A stretch of 64,000 bases of DNA from Escherichia coli (GTDB lineage: Bacteria > Pseudomonadota > Gammaproteobacteria > Enterobacterales > Enterobacteriaceae). Positions 42,345-45,066 of this stretch are shown in pieces (the first letter of the stretch is position 1; every line of letters starts with the position of its first letter). The position numbers and the translations under genes were made by a program. Location: assembly GCF_016026235.1 (NCBI RefSeq), contig NZ_CP065613.1. One strand, written 5' to 3'. Below the pieces are notes generated by a model. It saw nothing but the letters and a program-made list of their open reading frames with translations. It was not told where the DNA came from and made no database searches.

Positions 42345-42417
42345 TAAAAAGGCGCTGAATGGCGCTTTTTTATAGGAGACCAGAAACAAAAAAACACCTG
42401 CTAGGGTGTTCAATAAT

Positions 42418-42494
<77 letters not shown>

Positions 42495-42528
42495 TCACCG
42501 TACTGCTTTTACTTCATCAAATTTTGAT

Positions 42529-42605
<77 letters not shown>

Positions 42606-42648
42606 TCACCGTACTGCTTTACTTCATCAAATTTTAATTGGTTGCGGG

Positions 42649-42725
<77 letters not shown>

Positions 42726-42923
42726 CGCACTATACTCCGCTCGCGTTTTCATGCAACCTTTTTTTTACCCCGATCACGGATCTGGCATGATTTTGAACAA
42801 AAACAAATCACTAAAGCCTATTTTTTGTGCAAAATTTGCGTCAGGGAGAGGCTGCTCATTTCATTAAACGCGGTGGTTTGTTATCTTCGTTGCGCCTTAT
42901 TTTTTAACCTGAAGAAGAGAACA

Positions 42924-44021
42924 ATGAAAGGACGTTGGGTAAAGTACCTTCTTATGGGCACGGTTGTGGCAATGCTTGCCGCCTGCTCTTCCAAACCAAC
43001 CGATCGCGGACAGCAATATAAAGACGGGAAATTTACCCAGCCTTTCTCTCTGGTGAACCAGCCAGATGCCGTTGGCGCGCCGATTAACGCCGGTGATTTT
43101 GCCGAGCAAATTAACCATATCCGTAATTCATCACCGCGTCTGTATGGCAACCAGAGTAATGTTTATAACGCGGTGCAAGAGTGGCTGCGCGCAGGCGGTG
43201 ATACCCGCAATATGCGCCAGTTCGGCATTGATGCCTGGCAGATGGAAGGTGCCGACAATTATGGTAACGTGCAGTTTACAGGCTATTACACGCCGGTAAT
43301 TCAGGCGCGCCATACCCGCCAGGGCGAGTTCCAGTATCCGATTTACCGTATGCCGCCAAAACGTGGTCGTCTGCCGTCTCGTGCGGAGATCTACGCGGGG
43401 GCATTGAGCGATAAATACATCCTCGCTTACAGCAACTCTCTGATGGATAATTTCATTATGGATGTGCAGGGTAGTGGGTATATCGACTTTGGTGATGGCA
43501 GTCCGCTTAACTTTTTCAGCTATGCAGGGAAAAACGGTCATGCCTATCGCAGCATTGGTAAGGTGCTGATCGACCGTGGCGAAGTGAAAAAAGAAGATAT
43601 GTCGATGCAGGCGATTCGTCACTGGGGCGAAACACACAGTGAAGCCGAGGTTCGCGAGCTGCTGGAACAGAACCCGTCTTTCGTTTTCTTTAAACCGCAA
43701 TCTTTTGCACCGGTGAAAGGGGCAAGTGCGGTGCCGCTGGTTGGCCGTGCTTCTGTTGCCTCTGATCGTTCAATTATTCCGCCAGGTACAACCTTGCTGG
43801 CAGAAGTGCCGCTGCTGGATAATAACGGCAAATTTAACGGTCAGTATGAACTGCGTCTGATGGTGGCACTGGATGTCGGTGGCGCAATCAAAGGCCAACA
43901 CTTCGATATCTATCAAGGGATCGGGCCGGAAGCCGGACACCGCGCAGGTTGGTACAACCACTATGGACGTGTCTGGGTGCTGAAAACGGCTCCGGGCGCA
44001 GGTAACGTCTTTAGCGGCTGA
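42924..44021 (+). CDS. mltA: Membrane-bound lytic murein transglycosylase A (lipoprotein)
   Basis: 365-aa protein from the ATG at 42924 (MKGRWVKYLLMGTVVAMLAACSSK, lipobox); the ORF-track extension back to 42642 reads through the tRNA genes and is rejected. Confidence 0.95.
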   Translation: MKGRWVKYLLMGTVVAMLAACSSKPTDRGQQYKDGKFTQPFSLVNQPDAVGAPINAGDFAEQINHIRNSSPRLYGNQSNVYNAVQEWLRAGGDTRNMRQFGIDAWQMEGADNYGNVQFTGYYTPVIQARHTRQGEFQYPIYRMPPKRGRLPSRAEIYAGALSDKYILAYSNSLMDNFIMDVQGSGYIDFGDGSPLNFFSYAGKNGHAYRSIGKVLIDRGEVKKEDMSMQAIRHWGETHSEAEVRELLEQNPSFVFFKPQSFAPVKGASAVPLVGRASVASDRSIIPPGTTLLAEVPLLDNNGKFNGQYELRLMVALDVGGAIKGQHFDIYQGIGPEAGHRAGWYNHYGRVWVLKTAPGAGNVFSG

Positions 44022-44108
44022 TGTGATATTCTGTATGCCGTTTTTACGGATATGACAGGGTGAGGGATAACCTCACATCCTGATTATTGACTAAGTGCGC
44101 GTTGTTCA

Positions 44109-44207
44109 TGCCGGATGCGGCGTGAACGCCTTATCCAGCCTACAAATCATGCAAATCCAAAATATTGCAGGAGTTATGTAGGCCTGATAAGCGTAGCGCA
44201 TCAGGCA
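44109..44207. repeat. BIME-like pair of inverted REP elements
   Basis: GCCGGATGCGGCGTGAACGCCTTATCCAGCCTACA and TGTAGGCCTGATAAGCGTAGCGCATCAGGCA in opposite orientation; the segment is flanked by an 18-bp direct repeat (44057-44074 and 44219-44236). Confidence 0.6.
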
Positions 44208-44259
44208 TTTATGCGTTTAGGGTGAGGGATAACCTCGCCCTTTTTAATTCTGAGGTGCT

Positions 44260-45066
44260 ATGTCTGTGGTAATTAGTGATGCATGGCGTCAGCGTTTTGG
44301 TGGCACAGCGCGTCTGTATGGTGAAAAAGCGTTGCAACTGTTTGCTGACGCGCATATTTGTGTGGTCGGTATTGGCGGTGTCGGTTCCTGGGCGGCGGAA
44401 GCGCTGGCGCGCACGGGGATTGGCGCAATCACGCTTATCGATATGGATGATGTGTGCGTCACCAATACCAATCGGCAAATTCATGCCCTGCGCGATAACG
44501 TTGGGCTGGCAAAAGCGGAAGTTATGGCGGAGCGTATTCGCCAGATTAACCCGGAGTGCCGTGTAACGGTGGTGGATGATTTCGTGACGCCGGATAACGT
44601 AGCGCAGTATATGAGCGTGGGTTATTCGTACGTGATTGATGCCATTGATAGTGTACGGCCCAAAGCGGCGCTGATTGCTTATTGTCGGCGCAATAAAATC
44701 CCACTGGTCACAACCGGTGGCGCGGGTGGGCAAATTGACCCGACGCAGATTCAGGTTACCGATCTGGCGAAAACGATTCAGGACCCGCTGGCGGCGAAGT
44801 TGCGTGAGCGCCTGAAAAGCGATTTTGGCGTAGTGAAAAACAGTAAAGGTAAGCTCGGCGTGGATTGCGTGTTCTCTACCGAAGCATTGGTGTATCCGCA
44901 GTCAGATGGTACGGTTTGTGCGATGAAAGCCACGGCGGAAGGGCCAAAGCGGATGGATTGTGCATCTGGATTTGGCGCGGCAACGATGGTGACCGCCACC
45001 TTTGGTTTTGTTGCGGTTTCTCATGCGCTGAAGAAGATGATGGCGAAAGCGGCGCGTCAGGGGTAA
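44260..45066 (+). CDS. tcdA: tRNA threonylcarbamoyladenosine dehydratase (E1-like, ThiF/MoeB fold)
   Basis: 268-aa ORF with nucleotide-binding motif VVGIGGVGSWAAEALAR. Confidence 0.9.
   Translation: MSVVISDAWRQRFGGTARLYGEKALQLFADAHICVVGIGGVGSWAAEALARTGIGAITLIDMDDVCVTNTNRQIHALRDNVGLAKAEVMAERIRQINPECRVTVVDDFVTPDNVAQYMSVGYSYVIDAIDSVRPKAALIAYCRRNKIPLVTTGGAGGQIDPTQIQVTDLAKTIQDPLAAKLRERLKSDFGVVKNSKGKLGVDCVFSTEALVYPQSDGTVCAMKATAEGPKRMDCASGFGAATMVTATFGFVAVSHALKKMMAKAARQG

Follow-up and report, generated by a model that had tools for sequence, protein, structure and literature searches.

A BIME-1 element between mltA and tcdA of Escherichia coli is bracketed by two copies of a predicted terminator hairpin

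Described relatives of the element

BIME-1 (the RIP or RIB type) is a repetitive element of about 140 bp that is present or absent among isolates (PMC3333891; PMC1187871). It joins one Y and one Z1 REP in inverse orientation over a long linker with an IHF-type site, and it lies as a single copy, outside genes, at gene 3′ ends. As this size, linker, location and presence or absence are all known, and as a copy between mltA and tcdA was found in E. coli K-12, the object treated here is itself already known; the K-12 RefSeq record lists no REP or RIP features in the mltA–tcdA region. Accessible descriptions of BIME-1 make no mention of conserved outer arms as putative imperfect terminal inverted repeats, and no duplication of a terminator hairpin at BIME-1 ends was found in the accessible literature, with Bachellier 1997, Gilson 1991 and Boccard & Prentki 1993 standing outside that scope. 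The hairpin-duplication footprint may therefore be undescribed, and the chances that it is already in print are about even.

The REPINs of REPIN–RAYT systems are likewise REP doublets with GTAG tags that are non-autonomous and can be folded as a long hairpin. RAYT is thought to move REPINs, and published work calls the way in which they spread unresolved (PMC8266576; PMC3116915; 10.64898/2026.03.23.713779). Excision of REPINs in Pseudomonas is asymmetric, resembles that of IS608 and involves no target duplication (PMC3116915), and the single-strand (“peel and paste”) transposition of the IS200/IS605 type, to which RAYT is related, also leaves no target duplication (PMC2817692). The insert between mltA and tcdA differs from both in being bracketed by a duplication, which measures 17–25 bp across this and six other sites.

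Two further groups invite comparison. MITEs such as ERIC and Correia share with BIME-1 a short, non-coding sequence, flanking direct repeats and the capacity to fold into a long stem-loop, and their terminal inverted repeats have a putative counterpart in BIME-1; the review that covers them describes REP sequences as lacking MITE signatures (PMC3184786). The duplications of MITEs are short, fixed in length and set by the transposase, whereas the length of the BIME-1 duplication follows the target palindrome. In other bacteria, REP dimers have been found inserted within palindromes (Di Nocera et al. 2013, PMC3733652). These are also REP doublets associated with a palindromic target, but there each side of the insert carries only half of the palindrome, whereas at BIME-1 the whole palindrome stands on both sides.

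The mltA–tcdA spacer and its alleles

The window, by which we mean the whole 64-kb stretch of E. coli DNA that was analysed, carries mltA on the plus strand at 42924–44021, as placed by the list of open reading frames and by the RefSeq annotation under identical or near-identical matches. Its stop codon TGA lies at 44019–44021, and its start was inferred from the annotated gene length of 1098 nt and then confirmed as an ATG. Downstream on the same strand is tcdA, whose ribosome-binding site GAGG (44252–44255) and coding sequence, starting with the ATG at 44260, together span 44252–45066. Across this locus the DNA is 100% identical to that of E. coli strain FDAARGOS_943. The first-pass annotation of this DNA had reported an 18-bp direct repeat in the spacer between the two genes, and this repeat was confirmed. 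The 18-mer AGGGTGAGGGATAACCTC occurs on the plus strand at 44057–44074 and 44219–44236, with a start-to-start spacing of 162 nt, and nowhere else in the window when up to three mismatches are allowed; 0.03 matches are expected by chance, and none of 100 shuffles gave two or more.

The homology extends beyond these 18 nt, as each copy is a full stem-loop of 23 nt. The left copy, AGGGTGAGGGATAACCTCACATC (44057–44079, plus strand), contains the 18-mer exactly at 44057–44074 and folds as CAGG-GTGAGG-GATAA-CCTCAC-AT-CCTG. It has no T-run, and its 3′ arm is decayed, the final 5 nt having decayed in the window strain and being better preserved in Escherichia sp. E1V33. The right copy, AGGGTGAGGGATAACCTCGCCCT with its T-run (44219–44245, plus strand), was delimited by a terminator scan and folds; its stem-loop at 44219–44241 reads AGGGTGAGG-GATAA-CCTCGCCCT and forms nine pairs, six of them G-C, followed by TTTTTAATTCT, with a folding energy of −16.7 kcal/mol. 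A GC-rich stem-loop directly 5′ of a T-run, as expected of an intrinsic terminator, is thus present at 44219–44241, with the T-run at 44242–44245. The right copy ends 13 nt 5′ of the tcdA ATG, just before the GAGG ribosome-binding site. Only this copy is adjoined by a T-run, and each end of the BIME-1 is flush with one full stem-loop. By prediction from the sequence, the AGGGTGAGGGATAACCTC repeat is the stem-loop of the mltA intrinsic terminator, with the right copy as the working, terminator-like one. On the preferred reading, both 18-mers are the still-identical core of a target duplication of about 23 bp.

Two other features were observed near the locus. A small hairpin, CCGTTTTTACGG, lies at 44036–44049 between the mltA stop codon and the left copy and is conserved in Escherichia and variable in other genera. 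Upstream of mltA, at 42406–42870, spurious open reading frames encode a peptide repeated three times (RGPDLNRRPSGYEPDELP.CSTPR) and match the position of the tandem initiator tRNA-Met genes metZ, metW and metV that the K-12 annotation places next to mltA. A scan of 43500–44800 for a promoter in the insert returned no sigma-70-like site.

Between the two hairpins lies an insert of 139 bp, composed of a left arm of 30 nt, an inverted Y REP, a linker of 34 nt, a Z1 REP and a right arm of 12 nt, which is shorter than the approximately 150 bp of full copies because the right arm is truncated. The two REP-like palindromes of opposite orientation that had been noted between the repeats were recovered as specific REP types in a scan with consensus strings supplied by the analyst. 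The Y-type REP (44110–44143) is a GTAG-REP on the minus strand, and so an iREP on the plus strand, with one mismatch to the Y consensus and with its CTAC, at 44140–44143, toward the linker. The other, GTAGGCCTGATAAGCGTAGCGCATCAGGC (44178–44206, plus strand), begins with GTAG at 44178–44181 and has no mismatch to a consensus of 29 nt; this length identifies it as Z1, as published REP lengths are 35 nt for y, 29 nt for z1 and 37 nt for z2 (PMC8266576).

The remaining parts were identified by alignment with other copies of the element. The left arm, CTGATTATTGACTAAGTGCGCGTTGTTCAT (44080–44109, plus strand; family consensus CAGATTGTTGACAAAGTGCGCGTTGTTCAT), is itself repeated in genomes. The long linker (L; 44144–44177, plus strand) is homologous to that of other copies, which have TGCAAATTCAATATATTGCAG at a putative IHF site; in the window copy the predicted IHF-like site is degraded, the best match, ATCCAAAATATTG, having two mismatches to WATCAANNNNTTR. 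The right arm, ATTTATGCGTTT (44207–44218, plus strand), lacks the terminal 13 nt or so, GCCATCAGTCTCA, that are present in the other copies with which it was compared (loci L085–L088, L095 and L111). The ends of the consensus BIME-1, AGATTGTTGACAAAG and, as the reverse complement of the right end, AGACTGATGGCAAAC, match at 11 of 15 positions in a comparison made by eye; the right end of this putative terminal inverted repeat is truncated in the window copy.

By the published definition (PMC3333891; PMC1187871), the insert is a BIME-1 of the RIP/RIB type. It contains one Y and one Z1 REP in inverse orientation, the GTAG sequences at the feet of the REPs face each other head-to-head over the linker (CTAC at 44140–44143 and GTAG at 44178–44181), the pair is a single extragenic unit and the sole REP pair in the 64-kb window at the threshold used, and E. 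coli isolates either carry or lack the entire module. It differs from the described BIME-1 in its truncated right arm and degraded IHF-type site. Viral contigs scanned for the element pattern gave no match.

In order to follow up the suggestion that the repeats mark the insertion or duplication of a repetitive module, the presence of the 162-bp unit was compared across genomes. A filled locus, scored by coverage of 80% or more of a 501-bp query, is present in 2,751 of the 5,426 complete E. coli genomes; this is a count of BLAST coverage classes rather than of genomes inspected one by one. In a spread sample of 39 chromosomal matches, only two length classes were seen, one of 501 bp and one of 338–339 bp, and the sampled short alleles were 162–163 bp shorter and carried one hairpin. 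Alignment of three short alleles showed this single hairpin without a BIME (...GACAGGGTGAGGG(A/G)TAACCTC(A/G)CCCTTTTTAATTCTGAGG...), and the empty alleles fall into two types by the base immediately upstream of the hairpin, GGATATGAC versus GGATACGAC. The suggestion thus stands insofar as a module was inserted; within E. coli, as set out below, repeated loss accounts for the polymorphism better than recent gain does. We consider it likely, and with good confidence, that the repeat is a target duplication made with the insertion of BIME-1 and later used for its precise loss.

Other BIME-1 sites and a possible route of insertion

Within E. coli genomes the left arm of BIME-1 is repeated, at a median of 5 positions and a maximum of 13, and the right arm is found at approximately 20–30 per genome. 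Sites for comparison comprised four other loci fetched from E. coli genomes, ten distinct full-length sites obtained by profile scanning of 120 metagenome contigs collected with an arm-plus-REP pattern, and four further sites from a right-arm search. The 32 nt to the left of each element were compared with the 32 nt to its right, against a null of 182 mismatched flank pairs with a mean score of 9.8, a 95th percentile of 14 and a maximum of 22. Seven of 14 BIME-1 sites had a flanking direct repeat (scores of 15–38, each with empirical p<0.05), and the same test gave no significant flanking repeat at the other seven, which are assumed to be decayed duplications; traces of such decay are seen at the barA–gudD copy. 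The first-pass annotation had regarded direct repeats around a REP pair as unusual, which does not hold for the BIME-1 subfamily. A flanking direct duplication of the kind that marks MITEs is found at seven of 14 sites, this locus included, with a variable length, unlike in classical MITEs.

The position of the repeats relative to the element is constant. At all seven repeat-bearing sites the right-hand copy begins at the first base after the element, and at five (yqjF–yqjG, rlmC–artJ, mscK–rsmS, tkt and site #7) the left-hand copy likewise reaches up to the element with no base in between; at mltA–tcdA and mngB the scored alignments stop 5–7 nt short because the 3′ arm of the left copy is decayed. 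The repeated unit itself is a different GC-rich local hairpin at each locus. At yqjF–yqjG, filled in 78 of 5,426 genomes, the left copy is AACGAGGAG-GAACA-CTCCTCGTTT, the right copy is AACGAGGAG-AAACG-CTCCTCGTTT and the hairpin of the empty allele is AAAAAACGAGGAGGAAGCTCCTCGTTTTT. At tkt (1,214/5,426 filled), the copies are AGGGCCGC-AAAT-GCGGCCCTT and AGGGCCGC-GAAA-GCGGCCCTT, left and right, with AAGGGCCGCGAAAGCGGCCCTTTTTTT in the empty allele, and at rlmC–artJ (3,191/5,426) they are AGCCGC-ATGT-GCGGCTT and AGCCGC-GGTT-GCGGCTT, with AAAAAAGCCGCAGGTGCGGCTTTCT. The empty allele of mscK–rsmS, a locus filled in 3,880 of 5,426 genomes, has one hairpin on a diverged haplotype. In total, the empty alleles at these four loci have one hairpin each in terminator form, a stem-loop with a T-run.

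Closely related pairs of filled and empty alleles allowed the boundaries of the duplication to be read at three sites (yqjF–yqjG, tkt and rlmC–artJ). The duplication spans from 1–3 A before the GC stem to 2–3 T after it, and so takes in the whole palindrome. At these three cleanest sites the two copies differ from each other at 0 of 52 stem positions and at 7 of 13 loop positions. Comparison of loci L085, L088/L111 and L095 with the empty alleles L209, L210 and L213 showed that the loop of the empty allele may match that of neither copy, and in one case it differs from them in length (GAAG versus GAACA and AAACG). This excess of loop differences may reflect selection on the stems together with age; it could also come from a mutation process specific to loops or from error-prone copying of the hairpin during insertion. 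Hairpin-capped ends of the “P-nucleotide” type were considered as a source of the loop differences and rejected, as the loops are not self-complementary.

The element at barA–gudD (L219, strain MNCRE44, approximately 150–400) is nearly fixed, being present in 5,205 of 5,426 genomes. Its hairpin copies share only the outer 6–7 nt of each arm (AACCGG...C[T/C]GGTTT), the inner 12 nt being unrelated and equal in length. As a single data point, this near-fixation fits with intact repeats as the driver of loss. The T-run lies on the Z1 side at most sites, with rlmC–artJ and yqjF–yqjG symmetric or opposite, in what is a small sample.

Two of these loci showed additional variation. At mscK–rsmS, L165 and 16 other metagenome loci (reverse orientation; cluster #22) have a right-arm flank, ...TTTTCATATCGACCATATTC, unlike the usual hairpin flank, which points to another rearrangement, or to a second structure, in part of the strains. 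The filled alleles of rlmC–artJ form two classes, one with 96–100% identity over 501 bp and one with approximately 86% identity spanning 477 bp, and the species therefore has two diverged forms of the element region.

A route of insertion can be proposed that would produce this geometry. Insertion would begin with one staggered cut per strand, at the two feet of a palindromic terminator in hairpin or cruciform form, and fill-in by repair synthesis would then copy the whole palindrome, so that the duplication would be set by structure and be variable in length (17–25 bp). One cut per foot is suggested because the duplication is symmetric about the stem in the three closely related pairs. That the cuts fall at both feet of the terminator palindrome is possible, though we would stop short of calling it probable. 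In its simple form the fill-in model does not predict loops that differ far more than stems. RAYT is a candidate enzyme, if a somewhat unlikely one; the target junctions are mostly T|T, a mismatch with the C|T cleavage preference reported for TnpA-REP of E. coli. A similar outcome is known from the integration of CRISPR spacers and casposons, in which two strand transfers at opposite borders of a partly palindromic target are followed by gap filling that duplicates the target unit. The likeness, a whole target unit duplicated after two events at opposite borders, is an analogy of working principle and no claim of membership, as no Cas1-type integrase is implicated for BIME-1 and its target is a terminator rather than a repeat array.

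A duplication could also arise by copy choice, if a replication fork that had stalled at the terminator hairpin took a BIME-1 elsewhere as its template and then returned, re-copying the hairpin. Hairpins do stall polymerases, the sequence between two switch points would be expected to be duplicated, and the excess of loop differences could stem from error-prone synthesis through the hairpin. However, the ends of the element are constant at unrelated sites (CAGATTG... and ...CAGTCTCA) and have no homology to the various target hairpins, whereas template switching needs microhomology, and we regard this route as improbable. Insertion with duplication of the target remains the preferred reading, and from it a broader one can be offered tentatively, with more doubt than conviction: that BIME-1 is a genuine miniature transposable element, bounded by imperfect terminal repeats that are conserved, and would integrate specifically at intrinsic-terminator palindromes through one cut per foot of the hairpin or cruciform, duplicate the whole stem-loop over a length defined by structure, and be reversible by precise deletion.

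Age of the insertion and its probable loss within E. coli

In order to place the insertion in time, relatives were taken from a TcdA scan of a genome collection, which returned 80 loci. A lone hairpin with its T-run and Shine-Dalgarno sequence, and with no BIME, was found in Citrobacter amalonaticus, C. sedlakii, Citrobacter sp. NCU1, Phytobacter massiliensis and several Enterobacter. The stem-loop, T-run and Shine-Dalgarno sequence of C. sedlakii are the same as those of the empty E. coli allele, and the right hairpin copy of the window is identical to the lone hairpin of both. The ancestral spacer thus held one GC-rich stem-loop followed by TTTTT, immediately 5′ of the tcdA ribosome-binding site, and since the single hairpin stands without a BIME in other genera, the duplication arrived with the insert.

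Other arrangements were observed at the orthologous position. In Kosakonia sp. S29 (L020), approximately 200 nt upstream of tcdA (locus approximately 1300–1500), the mltA terminator is also duplicated, with the left copy GGGTGAGGACTATCTCACTCT and the right copy GGGGTGAGGGATAAACCTCACCC plus a T-run, around an insert that has other REP-like palindromes and arms of the same type (left, CAGATTTTTGACAAAG; right end, TTGTCAGCAATATC). Either the same terminator was hit independently or the event is very old. Phytobacter diazotrophicus (L014) has only the right half of the Kosakonia-type arrangement. In Salmonella enterica subsp. arizonae (L015, approximately 1400–1460), the mltA stop codon is followed by one Salmonella-type REP-like palindrome, GCCCCGATAACGAGAGCCTTATCGGGCCTG, and then by the terminator hairpin, which stands alone and is not duplicated.

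Within Escherichia, in a comparison for age that left out E. fergusonii, the module was found with its right arm cut short in the same way in E. albertii, in Escherichia sp. E1V33 and in a divergent genome labelled E. coli. The E. albertii copy (L007, approximately 1300–1330) has a 13-nt deletion in the left arm of the BIME, at the left junction. At 5 of 18 positions its left hairpin no longer matches the right copy, and yet the left hairpin forms a perfect stem, preserved by two paired changes (AGGG..CCCT to AGAG..CTCT and GAGG..CCTC to GAGA..TCTC). This copy is old. As E. albertii and the two divergent Escherichia have the module, the insertion is old, and we infer that it happened once and before the split of E. 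coli and E. albertii. The paired changes would have kept the left hairpin as a structure by selection, and both copies appear to have been retained as structures in this way.

This bears on whether the empty alleles of E. coli could be the ancestral state, never occupied, with BIME-1 a recent entrant into some lineages only. The empty allele does equal the single-hairpin state of C. sedlakii, and the rarity of the filled state at yqjF–yqjG implies that gains do occur in the family. Against recent entry, the module with its shared truncation is found in E. albertii, E1V33 and the divergent lineage, and the heavily diverged E. albertii copy, with its deletion and compensatory changes, is not a recent import. 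The flanks of the empty alleles speak against it as well. When 290 bp on each side (580 bp) were compared, the empty allele L002 differed from the filled L186 at 2 sites and the empty L001, of ST131, differed from the filled L101 at 6 sites, whereas the empty alleles differed among themselves at 14–26 sites; each of these two empty alleles thus has a filled allele as its nearest flank haplotype. In addition, the empty hairpin of ST131 is a chimera, in which the loop (GGTAA) is that of the left copy and the 3′ arm (CACCCT) that of the right copy in an L101-type filled allele. A filled ancestral state is suggested for E. coli, and recent entry is very unlikely.

Within E. coli, the empty alleles most likely arose secondarily, by precise deletion between the repeats. 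The ST131 chimera is the product that would be expected from a crossover or slippage inside the repeat, and the two types of empty allele, told apart by their upstream base, argue for two or more losses. The empty state could instead have passed from one flank haplotype to another by recombination, without repeated deletion. Transposon excision is an established case of deletion between direct repeats on either side of a long palindrome. In precise excision of the Tn10 or Tn5 type, slippage between the target duplications leaves one repeat and restores the site; there as here, direct repeats flank a long inverted-repeat structure, and the repeats at mltA–tcdA differ in being longer (18–23 bp) and hairpins themselves. 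Placed around a long imperfect palindrome, they would permit precise deletion by slippage, which would have regenerated the single-hairpin allele at least twice and led to the approximately 50:50 polymorphism in E. coli.

An order of events that began with a tandem duplication of the terminator, with a BIME subsequently entering between the copies, would also give two hairpins, and it draws on the clustering of both terminators and REPs at gene 3′ ends and on the missing T-run of the left copy, which makes a partial tandem duplication conceivable. Such a history is highly unlikely, as the spread sample of 39 chromosomal matches showed no allele with two hairpins and no BIME, the empty alleles that were found all have a single hairpin, and the same flush geometry recurs at seven independent sites with unrelated hairpins. 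Finally, it can be dismissed with near certainty that the 18-mers match by chance, or that they belong to the BIME consensus as a conserved flank moved with the element (the latter being what the first-pass annotation had named as the result that would overturn its reading): the shuffles argue against the former, and the 18-mer is a local terminator hairpin that occurs singly and without any BIME in other genera, is absent from all further loci across the 1.40 Mb of enterobacterial DNA that was fetched, and is replaced at other BIME-1 copies by different, locus-specific hairpins.

The element is an ordinary one, and the value of the locus lies in a clean, recurrent, hairpin-sized duplication that makes an old open question testable. 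The spread of REP and BIME sequences has been described as unresolved (PMC8266576, 2021; 10.64898/2026.03.23.713779, 2026 preprint), and clean filled and empty sites with such a duplication point to a definite target, the terminator palindromes, and to a cut geometry, at both feet of the stem, that can be tested directly. If true, this would be the first in vivo footprint of REP/BIME dissemination, and it would name a target and a cut geometry for TnpA-REP or another nuclease. As a substrate for deletion, the duplication would also explain why BIME-1 is so often present in one strain and absent from another. For annotation, a pair of identical hairpins approximately 160 bp apart at a gene 3′ end may serve as a flag for a BIME-1 insertion, and the terminator seen in a given strain may be a restored one.
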